DNA from: Chiloscyllium plagiosum | Taxonomy: Eukaryota | Direction of reading: 5' to 3' | Assembly (NCBI RefSeq): GCF_004010195.1 | Contig: NW_025213793.1 | Span: forward strand, 1 to 32,635 | Length of the DNA: 32,635 nucleotides | Shown here: piece after piece, positions 1 to 20,418 of the stretch | How positions within the stretch are numbered: position 1 is the stretch's first letter | How the letters are laid out: every line of letters begins with the position of its first letter | Notes under the pieces: model-generated | Database searches by the model: none | Told to the model about the DNA's origin: nothing | The model's input: only the letters and a program-made list of their open reading frames with translations | Position numbers and translations under genes: made by a program

Positions 1-582
1 GGCTGGCTGATTGGCTGGGCTGGATGACTGATTGGCTGGCTGATTAATTGGCTGGCTGGCTGATTTGGCTGGCTGGCTGATTTGGCTGATTAATTGACTG
101 GCTGATTAATTGACTGGCTGATTAATTGACTGGCTGATTAATTGGCTGGCTGGTTGATTAACTGGCTGGCTGGTTGGTTAACTGGCTGGCTGGTTGGTTA
201 ATTGGCTGGCTGGTTGGTTAATTGGCTGGCTGGTTGGTTAATTGGCTGGCTGGCTGATTGGCTAGCTGACTGGATGACTGGCTGATTGACTGGCTGGTTG
301 ATTGACTGGCTGACTGGCTGGTTGATTGATTGATTGACTGGTTGATTTGGCTGGCTGGCTTATTGGCTGGCTGACTGACTGGCTGATTGATTGGCTGGCA
401 GGCTGGCTGGCAGACTGGCTAGCAGACTGGATGATTGACTGGCTGACTGACTCTGGCTGATTGGCTGGTTGATTGACTGGATTGTTTGATTGACTGACTG
501 GTTGGTTGATTGATTGACTGGTTGATTGATTGACTGGTTGATTGGCTGGCTACTGATTGGCGGGCTGACTGGATGATTGGTT
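1..582. repeat. Degenerate tetranucleotide low-complexity repeat (GGCT/GACT/GATT/GGTT mosaic)
   Basis: Mosaic of related 4-mers with local higher-order 16-20 bp units; grades into the perfect array that follows. Confidence 0.9.
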
Positions 583-3500
583 GACTGGATGATTGGGTGG
601 CTGACTGACTGGATGATTGGGTGGCTGACTGACTGGATGATTGGGTGGCTGACTGACTGGATGATTGGGTGGCTGACTGACTGGATGATTGGGTGGCTGA
701 CTGACTGGATGATTGGGTGGCTGACTGACTGGATGATTGGGTGGCTGACTGACTGGATGATTGGGTGGCTGACTGACTGGATGATTGGGTGGCTGACTGA
801 CTGGATGATTGGGTGGCTGACTGACTGGATGATTGGGTGGCTGACTGACTGGATGATTGGGTGGCTGACTGACTGGATGATTGGGTGGCTGACTGACTGG
901 ATGATTGGGTGGCTGACTGACTGGATGATTGGGTGGCTGACTGACTGGATGATTGGGTGGCTGACTGACTGGATGATTGGGTGGCTGACTGACTGGATGA
1001 TTGGGTGGCTGACTGACTGGATGATTGGGTGGCTGACTGACTGGATGATTGGGTGGCTGACTGACTGGATGATTGGGTGGCTGACTGACTGGATGATTGG
1101 GTGGCTGACTGACTGGATGATTGGGTGGCTGACTGACTGGATGATTGGGTGGCTGACTGACTGGATGATTGGGTGGCTGACTGACTGGATGATTGGGTGG
1201 CTGACTGACTGGATGATTGGGTGGCTGACTGACTGGATGATTGGGTGGCTGACTGACTGGATGATTGGGTGGCTGACTGACTGGATGATTGGGTGGCTGA
1301 CTGACTGGATGATTGGGTGGCTGACTGACTGGATGATTGGGTGGCTGACTGACTGGATGATTGGGTGGCTGACTGACTGGATGATTGGGTGGCTGACTGA
1401 CTGGATGATTGGGTGGCTGACTGACTGGATGATTGGGTGGCTGACTGACTGGATGATTGGGTGGCTGACTGACTGGATGATTGGGTGGCTGACTGACTGG
1501 ATGATTGGGTGGCTGACTGACTGGATGATTGGGTGGCTGACTGACTGGATGATTGGGTGGCTGACTGACTGGATGATTGGGTGGCTGACTGACTGGATGA
1601 TTGGGTGGCTGACTGACTGGATGATTGGGTGGCTGACTGACTGGATGATTGGGTGGCTGACTGACTGGATGATTGGGTGGCTGACTGACTGGATGATTGG
1701 GTGGCTGACTGACTGGATGATTGGGTGGCTGACTGACTGGATGATTGGGTGGCTGACTGACTGGATGATTGGGTGGCTGACTGACTGGATGATTGGGTGG
1801 CTGACTGACTGGATGATTGGGTGGCTGACTGACTGGATGATTGGGTGGCTGACTGACTGGATGATTGGGTGGCTGACTGACTGGATGATTGGGTGGCTGA
1901 CTGACTGGATGATTGGGTGGCTGACTGACTGGATGATTGGGTGGCTGACTGACTGGATGATTGGGTGGCTGACTGACTGGATGATTGGGTGGCTGACTGA
2001 CTGGATGATTGGGTGGCTGACTGACTGGATGATTGGGTGGCTGACTGACTGGATGATTGGGTGGCTGACTGACTGGATGATTGGGTGGCTGACTGACTGG
2101 ATGATTGGGTGGCTGACTGACTGGATGATTGGGTGGCTGACTGACTGGATGATTGGGTGGCTGACTGACTGGATGATTGGGTGGCTGACTGACTGGATGA
2201 TTGGGTGGCTGACTGACTGGATGATTGGGTGGCTGACTGACTGGATGATTGGGTGGCTGACTGACTGGATGATTGGGTGGCTGACTGACTGGATGATTGG
2301 GTGGCTGACTGACTGGATGATTGGGTGGCTGACTGACTGGATGATTGGGTGGCTGACTGACTGGATGATTGGGTGGCTGACTGACTGGATGATTGGGTGG
2401 CTGACTGACTGGATGATTGGGTGGCTGACTGACTGGATGATTGGGTGGCTGACTGACTGGATGATTGGGTGGCTGACTGACTGGATGATTGGGTGGCTGA
2501 CTGACTGGATGATTGGGTGGCTGACTGACTGGATGATTGGGTGGCTGACTGACTGGATGATTGGGTGGCTGACTGACTGGATGATTGGGTGGCTGACTGA
2601 CTGGATGATTGGGTGGCTGACTGACTGGATGATTGGGTGGCTGACTGACTGGATGATTGGGTGGCTGACTGACTGGATGATTGGGTGGCTGACTGACTGG
2701 ATGATTGGGTGGCTGACTGACTGGATGATTGGGTGGCTGACTGACTGGATGATTGGGTGGCTGACTGACTGGATGATTGGGTGGCTGACTGACTGGATGA
2801 TTGGGTGGCTGACTGACTGGATGATTGGGTGGCTGACTGACTGGATGATTGGGTGGCTGACTGACTGGATGATTGGGTGGCTGACTGACTGGATGATTGG
2901 GTGGCTGACTGACTGGATGATTGGGTGGCTGACTGACTGGATGATTGGGTGGCTGACTGACTGGATGATTGGGTGGCTGACTGACTGGATGATTGGGTGG
3001 CTGACTGACTGGATGATTGGGTGGCTGACTGACTGGATGATTGGGTGGCTGACTGACTGGATGATTGGGTGGCTGACTGACTGGATGATTGGGTGGCTGA
3101 CTGACTGGATGATTGGGTGGCTGACTGACTGGATGATTGGGTGGCTGACTGACTGGATGATTGGGTGGCTGACTGACTGGATGATTGGGTGGCTGACTGA
3201 CTGGATGATTGGGTGGCTGACTGACTGGATGATTGGGTGGCTGACTGACTGGATGATTGGGTGGCTGACTGACTGGATGATTGGGTGGCTGACTGACTGG
3301 ATGATTGGGTGGCTGACTGACTGGATGATTGGGTGGCTGACTGACTGGATGATTGGGTGGCTGACTGACTGGATGATTGGGTGGCTGACTGACTGGATGA
3401 TTGGGTGGCTGACTGACTGGATGATTGGGTGGCTGACTGACTGGATGATTGGGTGGCTGACTGACTGGATGATTGGGTGGCTGACTGACTGGATGATTGG

Positions 3501-4950
3501 GTGGCTGACTGACTGGATGATTGGGTGGCTGACTGACTGGATGATTGGGTGGCTGACTGACTGGATGATTGGGTGGCTGACTGACTGGATGATTGGGTGG
3601 CTGACTGACTGGATGATTGGGTGGCTGACTGACTGGATGATTGGGTGGCTGACTGACTGGATGATTGGGTGGCTGACTGACTGGATGATTGGGTGGCTGA
3701 CTGACTGGATGATTGGGTGGCTGACTGACTGGATGATTGGGTGGCTGACTGACTGGATGATTGGGTGGCTGACTGACTGGATGATTGGGTGGCTGACTGA
3801 CTGGATGATTGGGTGGCTGACTGACTGGATGATTGGGTGGCTGACTGACTGGATGATTGGGTGGCTGACTGACTGGATGATTGGGTGGCTGACTGACTGG
3901 ATGATTGGGTGGCTGACTGACTGGATGATTGGGTGGCTGACTGACTGGATGATTGGGTGGCTGACTGACTGGATGATTGGGTGGCTGACTGACTGGATGA
4001 TTGGGTGGCTGACTGACTGGATGATTGGGTGGCTGACTGACTGGATGATTGGGTGGCTGACTGACTGGATGATTGGGTGGCTGACTGACTGGATGATTGG
4101 GTGGCTGACTGACTGGATGATTGGGTGGCTGACTGACTGGATGATTGGGTGGCTGACTGACTGGATGATTGGGTGGCTGACTGACTGGATGATTGGGTGG
4201 CTGACTGACTGGATGATTGGGTGGCTGACTGACTGGATGATTGGGTGGCTGACTGACTGGATGATTGGGTGGCTGACTGACTGGATGATTGGGTGGCTGA
4301 CTGACTGGATGATTGGGTGGCTGACTGACTGGATGATTGGGTGGCTGACTGACTGGATGATTGGGTGGCTGACTGACTGGATGATTGGGTGGCTGACTGA
4401 CTGGATGATTGGGTGGCTGACTGACTGGATGATTGGGTGGCTGACTGACTGGATGATTGGGTGGCTGACTGACTGGATGATTGGGTGGCTGACTGACTGG
4501 ATGATTGGGTGGCTGACTGACTGGATGATTGGGTGGCTGACTGACTGGATGATTGGGTGGCTGACTGACTGGATGATTGGGTGGCTGACTGACTGGATGA
4601 TTGGGTGGCTGACTGACTGGATGATTGGGTGGCTGACTGACTGGATGATTGGGTGGCTGACTGACTGGATGATTGGGTGGCTGACTGACTGGATGATTGG
4701 GTGGCTGACTGACTGGATGATTGGGTGGCTGACTGACTGGATGATTGGGTGGCTGACTGACTGGATGATTGGGTGGCTGACTGACTGGATGATTGGGTGG
4801 CTGACTGACTGGATGATTGGGTGGCTGACTGACTGGATGATTGGGTGGCTGACTGACTGGATGATTGGGTGGCTGACTGACTGGATGATTGGGTGGCTGA
4901 CTGACTGGATGATTGGGTGGCTGACTGACTGGATGATTGGGTGGCTGACT
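583..4950. repeat. Homogeneous 24-bp tandem array (GACTGGATGATTGGGTGGCTGACT)n, about 182 copies
   Basis: Lines repeat with 120-bp periodicity and no visible variant; 4368 bp / 24 = 182 units; produces the spurious (WMIGWLTD)n ORF. Confidence 0.98.
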
Positions 4951-5410
4951 GTTCAGATGAGACTTACTCGGGTGTTCCTTGGTATGGAAGGACGGTCTTA
5001 CGAGGAAAGGCGGGGGGAGCTGTTATTGTTGGCGAGAGGAAGGATGAAAGGTGATGTAATCGAGACGTAAAAGATAGTCAGAGTGTTAGATAGGGCGGAC
5101 AGTGACAGTCTTTTTCCTCGGATGGCTAAAGCTCATACGAAGGGACGCAGCTTTAAACTGAGTGGTGATAGATTGAGGACAGATTTCAGGGGTAGTTTCT
5201 TTACTCAGAGAGTAGTAGGGGCGTGGGACGGCCTGCCTGCAACAGTAGCAGACTCGCTGACATTAAGGGTACTTAAACGGGCATTGGACATGTACATGAA
5301 TAATAATGGAATGCTGTAGGTTAAAGCACATCCGATTAATTTCACAAACCAGTGCAACATCGAGGGCTGAAGGTCCTTTACAGCGCTGTACAGTTATATG
5401 TTCTGTGTTT
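4951..5410 (+). mobile_element. CR1-clade LINE, 5'-truncated 3' fragment (ORF2 C-terminus plus 3' UTR)
   Basis: Translates to VQMRLTRVFLGMEGRSYEER...KGDVIET*KIVRVLDRADSDSLFPR...SFFTQRVVGAWDGLP, the typical CR1 ORF2 tail; ends in a short tgttctgtgtt-type tail. Confidence 0.88.
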
Positions 5411-7321: not shown

Positions 7322-7363
7322 TGGTTCTTGGATCCTCTCTCTCGTTCTTGGATCCTCTCTCTC

Positions 7364-7401
<38 letters not shown>

Positions 7402-7402
7402 C
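7322..7402. repeat. (CT)n microsatellite with duplicated gttcttggatcctctctct unit
   Basis: Directly visible. Confidence 0.85.
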
Positions 7403-8334
7403 ATTCACTACAAGCTCTCCGACACTGTCCTTCAGTCTGTACGGGTTGGTAATGTAGCTGCATCTTTCTGTTCCTCGCCCTACCTGAGTTAGAATCGTTT
7501 CACCACTCACCCACCCCAATCTCCCCAAATTGAAAGGTAACGGTTTTGTAAGATCAAGTACCTTTCTCAGTGGGAGGACATCTTCCTGGGGACTGGGAGC
7601 TTGCTGTGCAGTAAGGCACTCAGATAGAAGGCCAGTCATTTTCTGGCCATATTTCCAGTGCCCTCCAGGTCCTGAGGGAGTCATGCAGGAATTAGGAGTG
7701 GTGAAGCTGCACAGAATTGAGGGTGCTTATTAGAAATTGAGGCTTCAAATATTTTAAGAGTTCAAAGTGGATGTTGGTGGAATATCAGGGTGGTGAATAA
7801 TTAAAGGGGCGTAAAACGTTATGGGTGGAAATATTTCATGGGCGATGAAACTGGAGGTTTAGAATTGGGATGGAGTGCAATCATTGGTTGCAATATTTAG
7901 GGGATGAAAATAAGGAAACATAATATTTGATGAGACAATATTTGGAAAGACGTGCATTTGTGTGGAGGAGTGAATATCTGATAGGGTGCACTATTGCTTT
8001 GGATAGCACAAACTTTGAAGGGGGCAAAATTGAGGACATACCTCTGGGTGCAAAGAGATGGGCAAATGCGGAACTCAGTGAATTTTCTTGGGCTAATATC
8101 TGAAAGGCTTAAAATAGAAGAAGGGAGGGATGTGCCATGAAGGGATATATGGGGACTGAAAATTAGATAACACAGTTTGTTTGAGTGCATGTTTGAGGGT
8201 CGGGGAATTTGAGGTGAACAATCATATTTAAGGGAGGAGTATTGTGGGACTATATTTTCGTGGGGTGTATTTGTGGGAAACAATTGCGGCAATTCTGGAT
8301 GGAGCCAAATATTTTGGGGTTTGGTGTTGAAATA

Positions 8335-8770
8335 AAAAAAAGAGAGAAACAGTGAAAACAGAGAGATAGAGAAAATAATGGGAGTAGGCAGACAGAGAAA
8401 GGAGAATGCTGGCAAAGAGAGAGAGAAACATGGAGACAAAGAGAGAAGGGGAGACAAAAAGAGAAAAAGAGGGAGGGGATAAAGAAAGAAGGAGTGGGCA
8501 AAGGGAGAGGGAGGGCGGGAACAAAGACAGAGAGGTTGCCAGGAAGTGGAAGAATGAAAGAGCGACTCAAGAGACAAAGACGAGAGAAAGAGTGAGAATG
8601 AGACAAAAAGAGAGGGAGACCGAGAAAGAGAGAGAGAGTACAAAACAGAAGCAAGTGAAGAGACATTGACAGAACGAGACAGAAAAAATGAGAAAAAGAA
8701 AGAGAGAGGAGAAGAGAACAAGAGACAGACAGAGAGAAGAAGAACAGAGAGATCAGTCAGAGAGACAGTA
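8335..8770. repeat. GA-rich low-complexity tract (decayed microsatellite)
   Basis: Almost purely purine on the + strand; generates several spurious F/S/L-rich ORFs on the minus strand. Confidence 0.85.
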
Positions 8771-9396
8771 GTTCAGGAAAGGCACGATGTCTGAAGAGGC
8801 GCTATTCAATTTTCCTAAGGGTCTGAGCTCTCTCTCTCCCTCTCTCTCTCTCTCTCGGTGCTTTCACACAATCCAACTCCCCCGTGAATGACAGAAATTT
8901 CTCCTGTGGTTTGGCTCACCCTGGAACTGTTTCAGTGAAGGGGGTGGGATAAAGTTGTATCCTGGATTTGAGATTCCAGCCGTACCTGCACGGCCTCTCT
9001 CACACACAGAGACTCAGAGACGGAAACAACCAGAATACTTCTGATACTCAGTGCTTCGCTCCATCCTCACGTCAAAATGAAGTACAGCTACCAAGGCCTG
9101 GTTTATAAACACTCAGGTATGTCGCTCCAAGTATTATCTCCTCCTAAATCGCAATTCATCTGGTCAATTCTCAGTTTTTTCTATCTGGAACACACTTCCT
9201 CGATGTACGGAGCAAACCAAGAGGCTTCTATGTGACAGAGTTCAACAATGGTAGGGAGTTGCCAGTTCTCTATGTTCATGTCTTTTCTAGTTTGGTTTCG
9301 TTTTAGCAAAGGCAGTTATGAGATTCTGCAGTCGAGAGGATGCCTTCAAGCATCAGCAAATGGTTCCTGTATGGTCTCTGAAATCTCTCCTGCTTG

Positions 9397-9769
9397 TGTC
9401 GTGCAAATTAAAATGAGTCGACTCAAATGCTAGCAAAGAAAAAGAAAAAGTTTAATCGGATTCTGCAGAATCGACGCAAAACATTTGCCGAAATGCATCA
9501 TTTAAGGGGTGCCTGAATAGCTTTCACATATTCCCTTTATACTAAACTTCGCTTACTCTTAACACATCTGGGAACATTCGAGCTCCTTTCCACACATTGA
9601 GTTGTTTTTCTCACTCCTTGACTGTTGATAAGATAGTTGACTGTCCTTCTGAGACGACTGTGAGTCTGGTTTAACTTTTACATTTTTCCTGTCATTGATT
9701 TTCTGCCTTCCTGCAAAACTTTGCAAAGTATTCTTTCTCAGATTTCAAATAAATGTTAATTGCCATTAA
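9397..9769 (-). repeat. ERV 3' LTR (~370 bp)
   Basis: Follows the PPT directly; minus-strand TATAAA (9541-9536) and ATTAAA (9456-9451) in U3-R order; 9397-9432 matches 20419-20454 at 30/36 by eye and 9700-9769 resembles 20456-20554. Confidence 0.72.
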
Positions 9770-9770
9770 G

Positions 9771-9786
9771 TTTCCCCTCTTTTTTT
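9771..9786 (-). promoter_or_regulatory. Polypurine tract
   Basis: Minus strand AAAAAAAGAGGGGAAA between env and the 3' LTR. Confidence 0.8.
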
Positions 9787-10030
9787 ATCACTTTATGACA
9801 ACAACGACAGAAACAAAAAAAATGTGCAGAGCCAGACGGCTATAGATTACATTGCTGAGGGAGCACCAGGCATTTCCTCAGAAACTACCGATCTGTAACA
9901 CAGCTTTGTGGTAGTATCATCACTTGCTCTGGTGTGCCCTGTACATTGCCCATTTTCACACGTCACACACTTCAACGTCAAAGTATGATGGAGTCCTCAC
10001 ACTCCAATCTTTCTGCTGTGGGGCCACTGA

Positions 10031-11403
10031 TCATTTTACCATTTGGTATCCCAATGCACTCATAAGCAAATGGTATAGGTACTTACACAAGCCGAATCCT
10101 TTACAAAGCACAATGATTATGACCATTCCTATAACTTGTAGAACGTTTAGGATCCAATGCCCCTATTCTCCCCAAACGGAGGTGATCCATCGGAACGAGG
10201 AGTCATCTGCTGGGGGAGGCGGTCGTATCGCCGCCTTCATATGATTTATTACACGAGTGTTATTCTGGGACTCATCAGGAATATTAAAACAGCACGAGGT
10301 ACCTAACATTTTGCATATGCCCGCCATTATAGTCTGATTAGTGACGAAGGAATACGTAATGTTGATGATCATACCATTCACTTTGGTTGCTGAGCAAAAG
10401 TCATTGTTCAAGTACTGCGTCATAGTACACTGGGAGATGCCCAAATGTAGTTTCCCCTGATTTGTGCAAATACAGCTTTCTCCCCTGCCTTCGACTGTTT
10501 GAAAAGCTGTGGTCGGAAGCGTGTCAGCCTTGAGACTGCAGTTAGGCTTGAGTTCGGGTGGTGCCGCGAGATTTGCCGTTATTGCTCCCCCTATCAGTGT
10601 CACGGTGGTGGCCGCCCTCAGAAGCAGGCAGCGAGCATTTCTCGCCAGGTTCTCTGTGATTGGTTCGGCAGTCTACCGTTGGGTTATGTGCAAGCATATT
10701 CAACAAGTGTGGCCGACATCTAATCTCTGGTATTGTATTAGGGAAAAAACACATGCTCTGTTCTCTTCACATCGAGCAATGGCCCTCCGCACTTCGCAAT
10801 CTATTGGCGTAGCCTTTACAACATTTATCTTCTGAGGGGTCAATTCCACAACCGCGTTAGACTCGCTATTATGCCTCGGTCAACACCCTCCGGGTTCGTG
10901 TAAGACATTAATGCCCTCCACCCGTCTTGGATTCAGGTCCATGATTAGGTTTGATAGGTTGACATGCCCTAGTGCAACTATCTTCTGTAGGACCTTCTGC
11001 ACTGCATCTCGGGGAGGCGACTGTATCACTATATTCACCTATCTATAGGTGTCGGAGAAGGCTCTATGCCAGATGCCCTCATCGCTCTTCTGAGTCTTGG
11101 ATATTGCCGCCCGTGCTCTGGCAACTACAATCTTGATTATACAATATCTATTTCCAGTGTGAGGTGTCCCTTTGGCCGTGGTGGCTACTTCTAAGTGCCA
11201 GTCACCGGAGCCACAAGTATCCCTTCGTAAATATTTATTATCCATTTATAGTCCTGGTGTCTAAACGGCCATGTGTCACATGTGAAGGTCCCCTTAGTTC
11301 CCTCAGTTAAGATTCCTCTGTGCGGCTGCATCACGGATGTCCTTACCCTTATGAATAGTCTTACCAGGGCGCTTGCTAAAAGTTTGAGCTGGGGCATCCC
11401 CAT
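10031..11403 (-). pseudogene. env: ERV envelope (gamma-type), decayed and internally deleted
   Basis: Hydrophobic start MGMPQLKLLASALV; SU isomerase motif C*IC (CWIC with TGG>TGA, 10705-10694); TM motif GICKMLGTSCC = CX6CC (10315-10289); Trp-rich FRWITSVWGE*G, then after a frameshift the membrane anchor WILNVLQVIGMVIIIVLC. Start codon is inferred. Confidence 0.85.
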
Positions 11404-11462
11404 AATTGTATGAGGCTTCTGTTCACTACTTGCACTTAATTGGTTATGGTGCTGTCCCACGT

Positions 11463-13734
11463 CTACTCAGGTCCAGCTACACGCTTGCAATGACTGGCGT
11501 GTATCCACGTGGCTCTTTCTGCTATCTTAACTGCTGTCTGTGTTGCAAGGAGCACTTGAAACGGTCCAAGCCACGTCTTCGCCTTCCAAGTTTTCCTCCT
11601 GATGTCTTTCACCACTATCCAGTCTCCCGGTTCTAGATCGTGCAGCTTCCCTTCCGTTAATCCGATTGGGGGTAACGCTGCTTTCACTTGATTCTGTATT
11701 TGAGATAAAACTGTAGAGAGTTTGATACAGTAACAAACCACTCATCCTCACAATGGCCTGTTATCTGTCTTACCTTAGGTCTTGGGGCCAATTCTTGTGT
11801 TGGGCAGTCTACCAAACAAAATCTCAAACGGGCTAAGATTAGCTTTTCCTCTCCTCCTGGATCTCATATACATTAACACAATCAGAAGTGCCTTTTTCCT
11901 TGTTACTCATAGTTCCTCGCAAGATTTTGTCAATTTATTTTTTAGGGTAGCATTTTCTCTTTCCACTGGCCCACCACTCGCTGGGTGGTAGGCACAGTAT
12001 TAACTCACGTTTATTCCCAAGTCATCAATGATCTGGTTTAAGGCATTATTGACAAATGGTGTCCCATTATCGCGACTAGGCCATTCAGGGTTGCACCATC
12101 TCGGAATTATCTCAGTTAGCAAAGCTTTGGCTGATTAGACGTGGAGAACGCTTCCACCCATTTGGAAAACATATCAACTATTGCCAGACAATACCTTTTC
12201 CCTTCACTGGGTGTGAGTTCAATAAAATCCGCCTGTAAATGTTCAAAAGGGTTTTGGGGTGTGGGGTGTGCTGCCTGACTTATCTGAATTCGCCTCCCCA
12301 CATTATTAGTTGCACAGAAAAACACAACGCTCACAATATTTCTTGGAGTAATGAGTAAAACCCTTAGTGCAACAATAAGCCGAAATATTGTCGTAGATCA
12401 CCCTTTTGACACATGGTACTTACCGTGTGTCAGTTTGGCATAGAACGGAAATCATGATCCTGGTAGACAGGGTTTACCATTGGGGCCACACCATATTCCT
12501 TCCCTCACACTGCATCCTGCTTTCATCCACTCACGCTTTTCTTCCAGTGTGGCCTGTAACTAACTCCCGTACGTCTGCTGTTGGGATACAAATTTTTGTC
12601 ATACATCTGTCAATCTGCTCACTTATTAGCTGCTAGGCTGCTGTTTTTGCTGCTGAATCTGCCCTTGCATTGCCTTCAGAAGTAAATTCACTATTTTTTG
12701 TGTGGGCTTCACAATAACACACAGCAATTGATTTAGGCATAAAGACCACTTCCAGGAGGTCAGAAATCAGGCCACGTCGTGTGATGGGTTTTCCAGTGGA
12801 AGTCAAGAAGCCCCTGTGTTTCCAACGGGTTCCAAAATCATGTACAATCCCCAATGCATATCTGCTATTGGTGGAAATATTCACTGTTATTCCCTCAGCC
12901 AATTTACAGGCCTCAGTCAAGGCAATCACTCCGCTGCTTCCACTGACAGATGAGAAGGGAGTGATCCCCATTTCAAAATCTCCTAGGTAGTCACTACAGC
13001 ATACCCGACACAGCTTTTTCATCTGCAGCCACGCCGCTCAGGTATTTAGGCAATCCTGCCGTTACGGGGTCGAGTTTAGCTGGAAAATAAGCTACCGGCC
13101 TCAATCTTCCCCCATGATCCTGCAACAGCAAAGATGCCATGCTGCCACGCTTCTCATCCACTGTTGGTACAAAATACTTGTTTGGATTCGGAATCTCCAG
13201 CGGATGTGTAGTTCGGAACGCGTTTTTAATTCAGCAAAGGTACTCTTGTCCTCTGGGGCCCACTGCAACGGACTTTCGTTCTGCAAACCTGTGCCGTGGG
13301 CTATGTCACTTAGGGTAGCCTCACGGGTTGTGTAATGTGAGATAAACGTTCTACAGTAGGAGCACATGACCAAAAGGGTAAGTAATTGTTTCTTCGTGTG
13401 AGGTTTTGGAATTGCTGGGTTGCTTGAACTCTTTCTTGACCAATAGCCTTCCCTTGTTCAGATATTACGTGACCTAAGAACTTCACCTGTTGTGCAAATT
13501 GTAGCTTTGTGAGTCTGCCTTTGTGCCTTCCCTTGCAAGATGGCAGATCAGTGCAACGGTATCATTCTCACATTGTTCCTTTGTTAGTGCCGCTATCAAG
13601 TAATTATCTACATACTGCAAAGGCGCTGACTCAGGGGTTAGAGCAAGACTCTCCAGAATCCTGCGTAGACCCTCATTATATATGGTGGGGGATACACAGT
13701 AACCTTGACAAAGTCGCGTGAAGGTATATGGTTT
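11463..13734 (-). pseudogene. pol: ERV pol, second partial copy (RT C-half, connection, RNase H, integrase)
   Basis: FTRLCQGYC.SP, RNase H IALTEACKLAEG...RYALGIVHDFG...GNARADSAAK, IN PFEHLQADFIEL...VDMFSKWVEAF, C-terminal WLGPFQVLLATQTAVK...WIHASHCK. Confidence 0.92.
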
Positions 13735-14351
13735 NNNNNNNNNNNNNNNNNNNNNNNNNNNNNNNNNNNNNNNNNNNNNNNNNNNNNNNNNNNNNNNNNN
13801 NNNNNNNNNNNNNNNNNNNNNNNNNNNNNNNNNNNNNNNNNNNNNNNNNNNNNNNNNNNNNNNNNNNNNNNNNNNNNNNNNNNNNNNNNNNNNNNNNNNN
13901 NNNNNNNNNNNNNNNNNNNNNNNNNNNNNNNNNNNNNNNNNNNNNNNNNNNNNNNNNNNNNNNNNNNNNNNNNNNNNNNNNNNNNNNNNNNNNNNNNNNN
14001 NNNNNNNNNNNNNNNNNNNNNNNNNNNNNNNNNNNNNNNNNNNNNNNNNNNNNNNNNNNNNNNNNNNNNNNNNNNNNNNNNNNNNNNNNNNNNNNNNNNN
14101 NNNNNNNNNNNNNNNNNNNNNNNNNNNNNNNNNNNNNNNNNNNNNNNNNNNNNNNNNNNNNNNNNNNNNNNNNNNNNNNNNNNNNNNNNNNNNNNNNNNN
14201 NNNNNNNNNNNNNNNNNNNNNNNNNNNNNNNNNNNNNNNNNNNNNNNNNNNNNNNNNNNNNNNNNNNNNNNNNNNNNNNNNNNNNNNNNNNNNNNNNNNN
14301 NNNNNNNNNNNNNNNNNNNNNNNNNNNNNNNNNNNNNNNNNNNNNNNNNNN
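13735..14351. other. Assembly gap (617 N)
   Basis: Run of N. Confidence 1.
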
Positions 14352-14452
14352 TACCAGGGCGCTTGCTAAAAGTTTGAGCTGGGGCATCCCCATATTTGTA
14401 TGAGGCTTCTGTTCACTACTTGCACTTAATTGGTTATGGTGCTGTCCCACGT

Positions 14453-17400
14453 CTACTCAGGTCCAGCTACACGCTTGCAATGACTGGCGTGTATCCACGT
14501 GGCTCTTTCTGCGATCTTAACTGCTGTCTGTGTTGCAAGGAGCACTTGAAACGGTCGAAGCCACGTCTTCGCCTTCCAAGTTTTCCTCCTGATGTCTTTC
14601 ACCACTATCCAGTCTCCCGGTTCTAAATCGTGCAACTTCCCTTCCGTTAATCCGGTTGGGGTAACGCTGCTTTCACTTGATTCTGTATTTGAGATAAAAC
14701 TGTAGAGAGTTTTATACAGTAACAAACCATCTCATCCTTACAATGGCCTGTTATCTGTCTTACCTTAGGTCTTGGGGCCAATTCCTGTGTTGGGCAGTCT
14801 ACCAAACAAAATCTCAAACGGGCTAAGATTAGCTTTTCGTCTCCTCCTGGATCTCATATACATTAACACAATCAGAAGTGCCTTTGTCCATGTTACTCCT
14901 AGTTCCTCGCGAGATTTTGTCAATTTATTTTTTAGGGTAGCATTTTCTCTTTCCACTGGCCCACCACTCGCTGGGTGGTAGGCACATAATTGACTCATGT
15001 TTATTCTCAAGTCATCAATGATCTGGTTTAAGGCATTATTGACAAATGGTATCCCATTGTCGTGACTAAGCCATTCAGGGTTGCACCATCTCGGAATTAT
15101 CTCAGTTAGCAAAGCTTTGGCTGATTAGACGTGGAGAACGCTTCCATCCATTTGGTAAACATATCAACTATTGCCAGACAATACGTTTTCACTTCATTGG
15201 GTGTTAGTTTAATAAAATCCGCCTGTAAATGTTCAAAAGGGTTTTAGGGTGTGGAGTGTGCTGCCTGACTTATCTGAATTCGCCTCCCCACATTATTAGT
15301 TGCACAGAAAAACACAACGCTCACAATATTTCTTGGAGTAATGAGTAAAACCCTTAGTGCAACAGTAAGCCGAAATATTGTTGTAGATCACCCTTTTGAC
15401 ACATGGTCCTTCCCGTGGGTTTACCATTGGGGCCACACCATATTCCTTCCCTCACACTGCATCCTGCTTTCATCCACTCACGCTTTTCTTCCAGTACGGC
15501 CTGTAACTGTAACTCCCGTGCGTCTGATGTTGGGATACAAATTTTTGTCATACATCTGTCAATCTGCTCACTTATTAGCTGCTAGGCTGCTGTTTTTTGC
15601 TGCTGAATCTGCCCTTGCATTGCCATCAGAAATCAATTCACTATTTTTTGTGTGGGCTTCACACTTAGACACAGCGGTTGATTTAGGCATAAAGACCACT
15701 TCCAGGAGGTCCGAAATCAGGCCACGTCGTGTGATGGGCTTTCCAGTGGAAGTCAAGAAGCCCCTGTGTTTCCAACGGGTTCCAAAATCATGTACAATCC
15801 CCAATGCATATCTGCTACCGGTGGAAATATTCACTGTCATTCCCTCAGCCAATTTACAGGACTCAGTCAAGGCAATCAATCCGCTGCTTCCACTGACAGA
15901 TGAGAAGGGAGTGATCCCGCTTTCAATGTCTCCTAAGTAGTCATTACAGCATACCCGACACAATTCTGGCCTGTGTCCTTGCTCGCGAATGCTGACGCAT
16001 CCACAAAAATCTCCATATCGGCCTTCTGAACTGGTGAATCCAGCAAATCTGGTCTGGGGCTGCAAGTCTCATTAGTTAGCAGCGACGCAATCATGTGGGT
16101 GACCTCCTCCTTCTGTGGGTAAAAGGCTAGCAGTGTTAAGGCCGTTACATCGCTCTATTGTAATGTTAAGCATCTCCAAGAGCACAGTATTCCATCTGAG
16201 CCAAAGTGCTGCTGAAATGGGTGTGGTCCTTTGCTCGGAAAGCATAAAGGATACTGCATGTGGGACCAGACGAGTTAATTCACCGCAGCCAAAAATATTC
16301 CTGGACGCTGCAACAGCTTTTTCATCTGCAGCCACGCTGCCCAGGTATTTCGGCAATCCTGCCGTTACGGGGTCTAGTTTAGCTGAAAAATAAGCTACCG
16401 GCCTCAATCTTCCCCCATGATCCTGCAACAGCAAAGATGCCATGCTGCCACGCTTCTCATCCACTGTTGGTACAAAAGACTTGTTTGGATTAGGAATCCC
16501 CAGCGGATGTGTAGTTCGGAACGCGTTTTTAATTCAGCAAAGGCACTCTCGTCCACTGGGGCCCACTGCAACGGACTTTCGTTCTGCAAACCTGTGCCGT
16601 GGGCTATGTCACTTAGGGTAGCCTCAAGGGTTGTGTAATGTGAGATAAACGTTCTACAGTAGGAGCACATGAACAAAAGGGTAAGTAATTGTTTCTTCGT
16701 GTGGGGTTTTGGAATTTGCTGGGTTGTCTTGACCAATAGCCTTCCCTTGTTCAGATATTACGTGACCTAAGAACTTCACCTGTTGTTGTGCAAATTGTAG
16801 CTTTTTGAGTCTGCCTTTGTGCCTTCCCTTGCAAGATGGCAGAGCAGTGCAACAGTATCATTCTCACATTGTTCCTTTGTTAGTGCCGCTATCAAGTAAT
16901 TATCTACATACTGCAAAGGCGCTGACTCAGGGGTTAGAGAAAGACTCTCCAGACTCCTGCGTAGACCCTCATTATATATGGTGGGGGACTCACAGTAACC
17001 TTGACAAAGTCGCGTGAAGGTATATGGTTTAGCTTTGAATGAAAACGCAAACCAGAATTGACTATCTCGGTGCACCAGTACATTGAAGAAGGCATTTGCT
17101 AAATCCACAACAGAGAACCATTTACTGTCCGGTGGAAGTTGAGCCAATATAGTATGGGGGTTAGGAACTATTGGGGCGCGCGGCAGAACAGCGCTATTGA
17201 TTGCCTGCAAGTCTTGAACAAACCTCCATCCCTCCGGTTCACCAGGAATGTTTGCCTTCTTCACCGGGAAAATGGCGTTTCTCAGCAACGAGTTTTCACA
17301 GGGGATTATCACTCCAACCTTTAGGAGGGATTCAAAGACTCGAGTAATTCCTTCTGTGGCGTCGGGTTTTAACGGGTATTGTGCTCTGCAAGGACGTTAT

Positions 17401-18627
17401 TCAGTCTTCGGGGTTACCCTTCTGGGCTCACAGACCCGTCTAAGCCACCTATCATGTTTGCCCTTTGCCCACAACTCAGTAGGGGCCATTTTTAATCTTG
17501 GGTCTGAGGCTTCTATCTTAAGCTAGCCCCTTAGACTTTTCAGGGCTAGCTGGGGTTCCTGGATGGTCCTATCTGCCTGAGTTAGCCAATTAAGTTTATT
17601 CTTATATGTCCGCATATTTGCATTGAACCAGACACCCACATCGTCCATGAAGACCCAACATTTCGTTCTTCGTGCCCTTAGTACCCATGGCCCCAAATCC
17701 TGCCACCTGTCACCAGACGCCTTTGCCAGTGCCACTTGAGGAACGGAGCCTTCCACATCAAAAAGATAGGGTTTGCATGCTGTTACGGATACCTTAGATA
17801 AGTTCACACTGACTGTACATCCGTGATCACTCCAGTAAAAATCGCACAATAACAAGTGATCTGGTCTAACCAATCTCCTGAACCAATCCTTCGCAGATGA
17901 TTCGTCAGGGCCATCACGGTGTATGTGTTCTGAGCAGTACAGCATATCTCCGGCAAGAAAATCGGTGTTAATAGGATAAACATGGTTGCTTGCTTCCAGG
18001 GTGAGTGAATCACTCACTAAATGTATCGCTCTCTGGCCTTATCGCCACTCTTAGATATACATCAGGGATCGTGGGTCATATTTTACAGACTACACTGGTA
18101 AATATTCCCTTTGAATTACCTGCAAGCCTATCGGAGTACTGACCAAGTCCAACCTCATGCTTCTTATGAGGTCCAAAGCCATCAGATTTAAAGGACAAAA
18201 TTCTAATAACAAGAAGGAGAAGTGGAAAGTTTCATCATTAGTAGTTTTCTACAATCGGGGTGCTAAAATCTCTTCCGCACCACGACTCCTGATGCACCCG
18301 TTGTGTTCAGGAACCTTTCACTCATCTTTATTTGTGTCGATTGTCTAAACTGGCTTAATTTAAGGAATGATTATGTTGCCCCAGTATCTTCCAAAAAGGT
18401 ATCTGATGTACCTTCAACATATAACATTGACTTATACGCATCATTGTGATATTGGACATACTGCCCACACTTCGCAATCTCAGCGCTGAATATAGAGGTG
18501 TGACATGTCTCATTGCCTGTAAGGTTAGTAGAATAGATAAGCATAAGTGAGTCTTCATTGCCAAGCATAAAAGAAAGAGACTTACTGTACCTTGTGAGCT
18601 TCCCACCTTCACCTCAGCCTTCCACTG
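14453..18627 (-). pseudogene. pol: ERV pro-pol (protease, extra domain, RT, RNase H, integrase), frameshifted
   Basis: Protease FLEDTGAT (~18380); RT QYPLK...FPVKKA...WRFVQDLQAIN...VVDLANAFF...TRLCQGYCESP...LQYVDNYLIA; connection RPVAYFSAKLDPV; RNase H; IN core SHDNG...AYHPASGGPVERENATLK; ends WIHASHCKRVAGPE*. Confidence 0.95.
17560..18000 (-). other. 2H-phosphoesterase-like domain inserted between protease and RT (catalytic His positions decayed)
   Basis: Stop-free 164-aa stretch with two motifs about 67 aa apart resembling HxT/S: MLYCSEH (Y=TAC, 17939-17937) and SVPQVALAK (Q=CAA, 17738-17736), followed by WQDLGPWV. Confidence 0.68.
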
Positions 18628-20211
18628 TCAATCATCCTGCTGTCCAACCTCCAGGGCCGATTGAGGCTGTCTGTGTGGGCACTATCTCGCCCAGTGGTCC
18701 ATTGTTCCACACACAAAGCACCCGCCAGATTTATCTCTGCCGACCTCTCTTCTGCGACAACTTCCACGACCTACTTCTCTTCCGCAAGAACCACCTCTGC
18801 CTCTGTCTCTTCCTGCAGCACCTCTCTCCAACGGCTGCGTGACCATTTGCATCAGAGGTAGCTGAGCTTTATGCGCATGCATTTCCATCTTTCGCTTCCG
18901 CTTATCCTTCTCTTGGCTAAGCATTTTTTCAGCATGTATCACATGTTGTTCTATCAAATTCAGCTTTCTCGTGTCCCAGGTAATACATGAGTCTTTTATC
19001 TTTTTCGCTATTTCGTCCTTCATTCTATTGATGAAGCTGTTCCTCAGGTGTGCCTCATACGGCGCGATTTCTCTGCTGTTCTGTCATCGGTTGGTCCCGG
19101 TTCACTATGGGTATTATGGGCTTCAGTGAAGAGCGTACGATACTGGGACACTGTCTTACCTTCTTGTTGTTTACACATTGCAATTTTGGTCATTTCCATT
19201 CGTTCTGCGAAAGCCTCCCTCTAGGCGGATGCCAGCACTTCAACAAAAGCATTAACGTCTCCGTTCTGCTCCGCTTTCGGCTTGGCTGCACTGGCTTGGA
19301 TGTTTGCAGTTGGCCAATTATACTTGATCTTGGTGACATTGGCACCCAGCTTTTGTCCCAGCAGACGTTTCATCTTATGGATGGAATGCGGTACAGAACT
19401 TTGTCACTTCTTCGGTGAACTTATTACCTCCAAACTCACGTGGTTCAGGCAATTGCCTCTAGGCAATTTCCAAATCCTTCATGGTCCATGGCCGGTGGAC
19501 CAACATTGGGTACCCTTCTGGACCTGCAACTTCAAACACTTGCGCTTGCAGGACAACTTAATTAGGTCATCGCACGACAGTACTCTCGCCATCTGATGCA
19601 TCGTCCGTCGTGGGGCGATCGCGAACAGGTCCTGGATACCTTTCTGCCCTGTAGTGGTCATCCTTCTTTTGGGCTTCTCTCTCCAATAGGTTGTGGGTAC
19701 GAAATACCACCGGCGAATCAGCAGACACCCAGGCGGCAGCCGCTGACTTGGAACCTTCACTAATCGGATCTCGTAGGAGGGTTGTAGGTCTCGGAGGTCA
19801 GTCATCAAGGTCAGGATCTGAAACAGACTTAAGACACTGTACAATTGCATTAGGTTGTTTTCCGCACGCGTCTGCATGTGCACTGGTGTTTGTACGCGTA
19901 TTTGATCTATGTTTTACTTGAGATTTCCTTTCCCTGATGTCAGCCTCAGCCTTCCACATGTTATAAGCACTCCAGTTTACGGGCTCTATTTTTTCCTTTC
20001 CTTTTCTCCTTCTCTCTCTCTCTCCTCCAACCGTGACCTCAGTATTTCCACCTACCTTTTACTAAGACTTCCTCCCTCTGGAAAACCACATTCCTTGATC
20101 CACAATACTAACTGCTTTACAGACTCTGGGTCGTAAATATTTAGTAAGTATTACATTTTTGGTTGGCCATTTGGTGGACCCTCTTTTTGTTTTGCTCGTG
20201 CTGGAGCCCAT
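18628..20211 (-). pseudogene. gag: ERV gag, frameshifted
   Basis: ATG at 20211 gives MGSSTSK (myristoylation consensus MGxxxS); matrix-like LWIKECGFPEGGSLS; capsid LVHRPWT...LPEP; RG-rich tract then zinc knuckle CFVCGTMDHWAR*C; ends QQDD-TGA at 18630-18628. Confidence 0.88.
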
Positions 20212-20396
20212 TTTCAGCGTTACTGGAAAAGCGTTCAGCTATCTCTGTCTCTCTGTTGCGGTGCCGTTATCATTTCCATTTTATCTACTTTTACCTCCGG
20301 AGGTCCCTTCTCCCATTGGGCGCGTCTGCCTCAATGCCTTGATTTTCGTAAACCAAAAACCACATACCCGGTAAGTCATTGACGAGTCCAACTCAG

Positions 20397-20411
20397 CCAG
20401 CGGTGGCTCCA
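20397..20411 (-). promoter_or_regulatory. Primer binding site, tRNA-Thr-like
   Basis: Minus strand TGGAGCCACCGCTGG matches 14/15 the complement of the vertebrate tRNA-Thr(AGT) 3' end as I recall it (TGGAGGCACCGCTGG); lies a few bases inside the 5' LTR end. Confidence 0.72.
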
Positions 20412-20418
20412 AGTCTGC

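Follow-up and report, generated by a model that had tools for sequence, protein, structure and literature searches.

The env gene of a decayed provirus in the genome of Chiloscyllium plagiosum begins with a hydrophobic leader followed by peptides that resemble the strands of an immunoglobulin (Ig) domain, which raises the question of whether a retroviral Env took up a host receptor domain. The provirus lies in the window, by which we mean the whole stretch of 32,635 nucleotides analysed (assembly GCF_004010195.1, contig NW_025213793.1, positions 1–32,635). A first-pass annotation made from the letters alone had proposed a captured Ig-superfamily domain fused to Env, acting in receptor binding or as an immune decoy. 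Our analyses indicate that the locus belongs to a lineage of fish gamma-type Envs with an N-terminal four-cysteine V domain, which was probably captured from a fish receptor of the CD300/pIgR/NILT type and probably serves as a cell-attachment module.

The env gene of the window provirus

The window env extends from 11403 to 10031 on the minus strand and is preceded by decayed gag-pro-pol, as seen from translation and Pfam matches (Table 1). Since RT, RNase H, and an integrase whose C-terminal domain is of the MLV type were all recognised in gag-pro-pol, the element was assigned to the class I ERVs. Its env shows the order leader, V domain, linker, CXXC core, CX6CC, and TM, with the leader starting ~35 nt past the place where pol ends in the family. 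The peptides that had first drawn attention were all recovered on the minus strand: the leader, which starts at 11403, the segment with the B-strand Cys, and, in the other frame, the E-, F-, and G-strand segments to ~11021. A matching 5' LTR was looked for in the window and not found.

Table 1 Features of the provirus in the window.
Feature	Position	Strand	Basis or remark
env leader, hydrophobic, predicted signal peptide	11332..11403	-	translation; same leader in sibling copies
Ig V-set domain, CD300/pIgR/NILT type (supported), broken here	11021..11331	-	Pfam of siblings, predicted fold, profile ranking
Linker of ~75 codons, V domain to SU core; stop at 10882	10796..11020	-	translation
SU core with CXXC (10705-10694, stop inside)	10318..10795	-	ends at internal deletion
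TM remnant: CX6CC (10315-10289), membrane helix, short tail; stop at 10165	10031..10317	-	
Decayed gag-pro-pol: zinc knuckle, RT, RNase H, integrase (MLV-type C-terminal domain)	11436..20416	-	
Partial remnant of the 3' LTR, resembling a portion of sibling LTRs at 70-75%	9397..9562	-	

The gene is heavily damaged. A frameshift interrupts the V domain near 11243, and five stops (11041, 10882, 10702, 10675, 10165) lie in the second env frame, which continues across them to the CX6CC and the TM helix. The earlier reading that this frame runs through stops only into a CWIC-bearing SU was right about its course, but a stop falls within the CXXC motif here. The C-strand Cys is substituted, and a four-codon in-frame gap near 11075 takes out the F-strand Cys. 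Assembly error was rejected as the cause of this gap, because two sibling loci share it and contigs from two independent runs cross the site with no gap relative to the window. A further deletion of ~131 codons removed the end of SU, the furin site, the fusion peptide, and the immunosuppressive domain (ISD).

The window copy, which is dead, and three other loci form a subfamily in which the fusion parts were lost, while the V domain, linker, and anchor were retained; the F-strand Cys is missing in 3/3 of its readable copies. The ~131-codon deletion (window 10318–10340), which fuses the SU core to the CX6CC, was also seen in loci L002, L003, and L025. Window positions 7335–10312 were 96.7% identical to a copy on contig C17 (L056), and because the identity reaches into the flanking DNA, the two represent one duplicated insertion or two alleles rather than independent insertions.

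Taken alone, the window copy is weak Ig evidence. Its first half matched Pfam Ig_2 with an E value of 0.16, its second half had no Ig match in Pfam, and neither the cyprinid-viral nor the host CD300-like profile found the V domain in the six frames of the window. It rises beyond chance only through its family, on whose evidence a chance motif was rejected.

The ERV family in the C. plagiosum genome

Searches of the 3.56-Gb genome yielded at least 44 DNA matches (from 40 of 355 candidates) and at least 150 protein matches (from 150 of 410 candidates). Among the V-bearing loci fetched, integrase was found upstream in 42/42 and SU/TM downstream in 40/42, and the sibling frames carry the CXXC, furin site, fusion peptide, ISD, and CX6CC. 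The linker begins with a proline-rich stretch in sibling copies, and a sibling frame of the TM region passed the Pfam TLV_coat cut-off.

This family is old and dead. No complete open env was found in the 150 protein matches (of 410 candidates), the longest frame over the domain being 339 aa. Four of the ten copies examined had LTR pairs longer than 300 bp, of which three were 415–435 bp long and 91.8–93.6% identical and one was partial (88%); the other six had no long pair. Two RNA runs gave 1 and 0 reads at a sampling of 2–6%, a depth that speaks neither for nor against transcription. On contig C8 (~31–76 Mb, L035–L038), clustered integrase-V fragments, some in inverted pairs and with altered leaders, look like the product of segmental amplification.

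Sequence signature and predicted fold of the V domain

In Pfam searches V-set was the top match for all five sibling frames, one of which exceeded the curated cut-off (26.3 bits), while both halves of the window copy stayed below it. Across 44 aligned domains, the cysteines of strands B, C, C', and F were retained in 38, 30, 40, and 35 copies, respectively, and all four together in 21. The absent F-strand Cys, which the first-pass annotation had given as its caveat, is indeed missing from the window copy, but this loss is specific to its subfamily. The inner pair, kept in 30 and 40 of the 44 copies, has Cx3C spacing. At the canonical C-strand Trp site 42/44 copies have Leu, as does one pIgR domain, and the cyprinid relatives mostly have Phe; the Trp of the YKW peptide, earlier taken for the C-strand Trp, lies just before strand C and was misassigned. 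The FG loop contains an acidic pair aligned with CD300A. PDB profile searches also favoured CD300/pIgR, and in the Atlas CD300/pIgR/FCAMR-like clusters were matched at 0.93–0.94; with the whole Env as query, the Atlas gave no usable match.

A model of a natural, unbroken sibling domain was predicted as an IgV fold (pLDDT 86, pTM 0.79); an earlier model from a shallow alignment had reached pLDDT 35. Its best structural matches were CD300A, CD300lf, and pIgR, with CD300A at Foldseek E 2e-7 and Z 12.4–13.4 (rmsd 2.3 over 99 aligned residues for the match at Z 12.4). Other IgV families followed only 1–2 Z units behind, and IgV matches overall had Z 10–13. In a viral fold library, only generic viral Ig proteins were matched. 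The V domain is thus predicted to be an IgV fold with B-F and C-C' disulfides.

Intact relatives in other fish

Word-based homologue searches with the V region as query found nothing. With the TM region as query, 21 proteins were recovered, and in 13 of them the CXXC core is preceded by the F-strand motif; several other matches are truncated gene models. The named V-bearing carriers are Cypriniformes, including Danio rerio, and all are annotated as uncharacterised or hypothetical, with automatic Pfam tags for both V-set and TLV_coat already on 3/21 database entries. P0001 is one 615-aa ORF that passes the Pfam cut-offs for V-set (36.5 bits) and TLV_coat, and it was the only one of 20 homologues to exceed the former. 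Single ORFs such as P0001 show the order leader, V domain, linker, CXXC core, furin site, fusion peptide, ISD, CX6CC, and TM. The V domain is in frame and intronless in intact ORFs from several fish genera, and the four cysteines are retained at 21–31% identity.

In a TM tree with three other C. plagiosum env families as outgroups, these Envs formed one clade (100/99), within which the placement of P0018, a piranha protein without a V domain, was not settled; its position inside the clade weakly favours loss of the domain. Run on the 30 env loci fetched, the viral V profile matched only the five loci of the present family.

Identity to the sibling frames differed by region. P0001 was 53% identical in the V domain, 30% in the SU core, and 69% in TM, and the cyprinid proteins 21–30%, 28–33%, and 59–64%, respectively. 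The contrast between V domain and core in P0001 could reflect a swap of the V module or a shared ligand. Seven proteins (P0002, P0008, P0010, P0011, P0014, P0016, P0017) have a longer leader, at whose end a second furin-like site lies directly before the V domain, and most of these cypriniform versions have an extra CxxC within an enlarged BC loop.

Relationship to host receptors

The C. plagiosum genome contains ~25 CD300/pIgR-like V exons on contig C26 (11.0–11.6 Mb and 7.46–7.54 Mb) and two TIM-like exons on contig C14. A profile built from viral sequences only was used to rank 38 host V exons, leaving out loci without a parsable exon (9/30 candidates, 3/20 controls). The top 17 all came from the CD300/pIgR-like cluster, and all 17 control exons (Ig, TCR, nectin-like) ranked below them; two further cluster exons and the two TIM-like exons scored lower. 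A rearranging Ig or TCR donor was rejected on this ranking. The subfamily of the domain can be narrowed to the CD300/pIgR/NILT type, which is nearest in both sequence and predicted fold.

An exact DNA pattern search for host exons found none. The viral V domains were 27–37% identical to the best host exons over alignments of at least 45 aa, and 16/17 parsed host exons had inner spacings of Cx6C or Cx7C and none Cx3C, one being mis-parsed. Recent capture from C. plagiosum was rejected on this low identity and on the Cx3C spacing. In a tree without teleost host sequences, the viral domains fell on the CD300/TIM side of a branch with support 93/99, outside the C. plagiosum CD300-like paralogues. 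Given this position and the low identity to any host exon, no donor gene can be assigned. An AU test of one versus two viral captures gave p 0.44. In the accessible part of the literature, Cx3C spacing is described for some teleost NILTs, and human CD300, TREM, and pIgR have Cx6–9C. Because Cx3C matches some teleost NILTs and the host exons have Cx6C/Cx7C, we infer a bony-fish donor.

The viral domain shares with host CD300/pIgR/FCAMR and teleost NILT its best sequence and fold matches, the K-Y-x-C motif with a second inner Cys, and Cys-Gly-x-Asp after strand F. It differs from host CD300/pIgR/FCAMR in being single, intronless, and inside Env, in its Cx3C spacing, and in the Leu/Phe at the C-strand Trp site. 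The proposal of a host-type V domain fused in frame at the N-terminus of Env was thus upheld by the sibling copies, the intact fish ORFs, the predicted fold, and the profile ranking.

Selection on the V domain

V-domain alleles common to at least 4 of 39 copies comprised 25 synonymous and 39 non-synonymous changes (ratio 0.41, p 0.0007); without CpG sites the ratio was 0.55 (p 0.069). Private changes in the domain were neutral (0.94). For shared alleles elsewhere, the ratio was 0.38 in the SU core, 0.22 in the SU end and TM, 0.23–0.25 in the integrase, and 1.0 in the leader, so the signal of the V domain is weaker than that of the integrase. These values suggest, though not firmly, that the V domain was under constraint during replication. 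Being non-significant, the non-CpG result would also suit a domain that had no function or came in only after integration, as a neutral passenger. We consider such a passenger very improbable, given that intact ORFs from several genera of fish contain the domain in frame and without introns, that its four cysteines are kept at such low identity, and that dispersed insertions with paired LTRs carry it.

Proposed role of the V domain

The domain stands at the RBD position, joined by a linker to the near-minimal core that follows, and this arrangement argues for an attachment module. From CXXC to furin site, P0001 has ~190 aa; the accessible text of a preprint gives 162–175 aa for minimal Env cores (bioRxiv 10.1101/2024.03.17.585361). 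The V module was kept across C. plagiosum and cypriniform ERVs within one TM clade. We propose that a spliced host RNA recombined into a replicating virus, and that the V domain would be shown at the SU tip on its flexible linker, where it may bind a cell-surface ligand of the kind bound by CD300-family receptors, such as an aminophospholipid or a surface protein. Fusion would be left to the standard CXXC/CX6CC apparatus. Phosphatidylethanolamine and phosphatidylserine are bound by human CD300a, according to the title of a reference in PMC3917432; with the acidic FG-loop pair aligned with CD300A, this makes lipid binding by the viral domain a lead only, drawn from sequence and analogy.

The existence of V-less relatives makes an immune decoy or shield the main rival to attachment: the V domain would compete for ligands of CD300, NILT, or pIgR or mask the SU core, and the core would bind the entry receptor. 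In P0018 the signal peptide leads straight onto the core, and in P0004 the leader is joined to the linker and the V domain skipped, so the module may be dispensable. A decoy would also fit a donor family described as immunoregulatory in the accessible literature, and the retention of V domain, linker, and anchor in the window subfamily after its fusion parts were lost. However, since that subfamily has lost the F-strand Cys as well, it seems defective rather than specialised. The near-minimal core, the RBD position of the V domain, and its fusion within Env rather than in a separate ORF also speak against a decoy, which we regard as unlikely.

Precedents for captured Ig domains in Env

The earlier statement that typical gamma-type Envs have no Ig module was only partly right. 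According to the accessible text of the preprint by Hotzel (2024, bioRxiv 10.1101/2024.03.17.585361), the RBDs of MLV, FeLV, and EnvP(b)1 have an IgV fold in a modified form that lacks the B-F disulfide, and a SIRP-like canonical IgV occurs in a CXXC-less alpha-like Env, reported there as the first host capture; no further RBD type was found in CXXC Envs. The words "CD300", "fish", and "shark" do not occur in that text. The SIRP-like RBD of Env-Dbi and Env-Per, as described in the accessible text, shares with the fish domain a canonical host IgV that has the B-F cysteines and stands at the SU N-terminus in a gamma-type Env, and it is likewise interpreted as a captured RBD. Env-Dbi and Env-Per have no CXXC, come from mammals, and are close to SIRP, whereas the fish Env has the CXXC and the Cx3C pair, is nearest to CD300/pIgR/NILT, and is far more diverged from host genes. 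CrocERV31, which captured Nectin3, is likewise an ERV lineage with host Ig-superfamily sequence at the env position; according to the accessible part of PMC4299795, an entire three-domain host mRNA there replaces env, whereas the fish Env is complete and has a single domain fused into it.

In its accessible part, a survey of anamniote Envs has no mention of immunoglobulin, V-set, IgV, or Ig-like, and no Env of the CD300-like V type appears in the accessible parts of PMC9967133, PMC8672886, PMC6001957, PMC10072453, PMC7683403, and PMC4299795. The open full-text literature contained no report of a CD300-like V domain in an Env; subscription papers and preprint supplements lay outside this scope, and prior notice there is possible. 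If our reading is correct, this would be a second case of a retroviral Env with a host IgV front end, and, within the literature covered, the first in a CXXC-type Env and in fish. The intact ORFs of zebrafish make the question of the ligand testable.

Relationship to gammaretroviral RBD-C

The V domain might also be a little-changed survivor of the event behind RBD-C, a reading that is compatible with an attachment role and differs on origin. RBD-C would then have begun as a captured CD300/pIgR-type V domain from which the RBDs of MLV, FeLV, and EnvP(b)1 descend, and the fish lineage would keep the B-F disulfide and the Tyr-Cys-Cys-Trp-Asp marks. RBD-C, as present in MLV, FeLV, EnvP(b)1, and ZFERV, is likewise an IgV-like domain before a linker and CXXC core with a Tyr-x-Cys...Cys..Trp, late Asp pattern. 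It differs in having VRA/VRB/VRC expansions and no B-F disulfide, whereas the B-F cysteine pair is present in the fish family; no sequence-level match between the two was found.

In Foldseek the EnvP(b)1 RBD ranked eighth (E 3.8e-6). In the Z-scored structural comparison its alignment covered 111/112 residues with Z 10.0 and rmsd 2.9, and the identity was 19%, most unrelated IgV rows having 7–14%. Its Z of 10.0 equals that of many generic IgV domains, however, and its Foldseek rmsd was 6.2. MLV and FeLV RBDs were absent among the fold matches listed, with which kinship is still compatible. Look-alikes of the residues that mark RBD-C (Tyr-x-Cys...Cys-x-x-Trp plus an Asp in a late loop) recur in the family, with the Tyr in 42, the post-Cys Trp in 39, and the FG Asp in 37 of 44 copies; three look-alikes of the Tyr/Trp/Trp/Asp tetrad are thus conserved, an equivalence judged by pattern and not from coordinates. 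The post-Cys Trp sits in a short helix predicted before C'. PDB sequence searches gave no match to any RBD-C, Pfam TLV_coat was never matched before profile position 243, and the TM trees took in no RBD-C Env. Because EnvP(b)1 scores no higher than generic IgV domains and the sequence searches matched no RBD-C, we hold a common origin with RBD-C to be possible but doubtful. According to the accessible text of the preprint (bioRxiv 10.1101/2024.03.17.585361), the donor of RBD-C has yet to be identified and its origin is open; CD300/pIgR/NILT would provide a named candidate donor family.

Other features of the window

A part of pol is present twice in the window, at 11362–13734 and 14352–17030, with 95–96% identity around an N gap (13735–14351), which reflects either a tandem duplication or an assembly artefact. 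Between protease and RT, the segment at ~17500–17970 has no Pfam match and aligns with a cyprinid pol. Positions 582–4951 consist of a 24-bp minisatellite with 182 near-identical copies.
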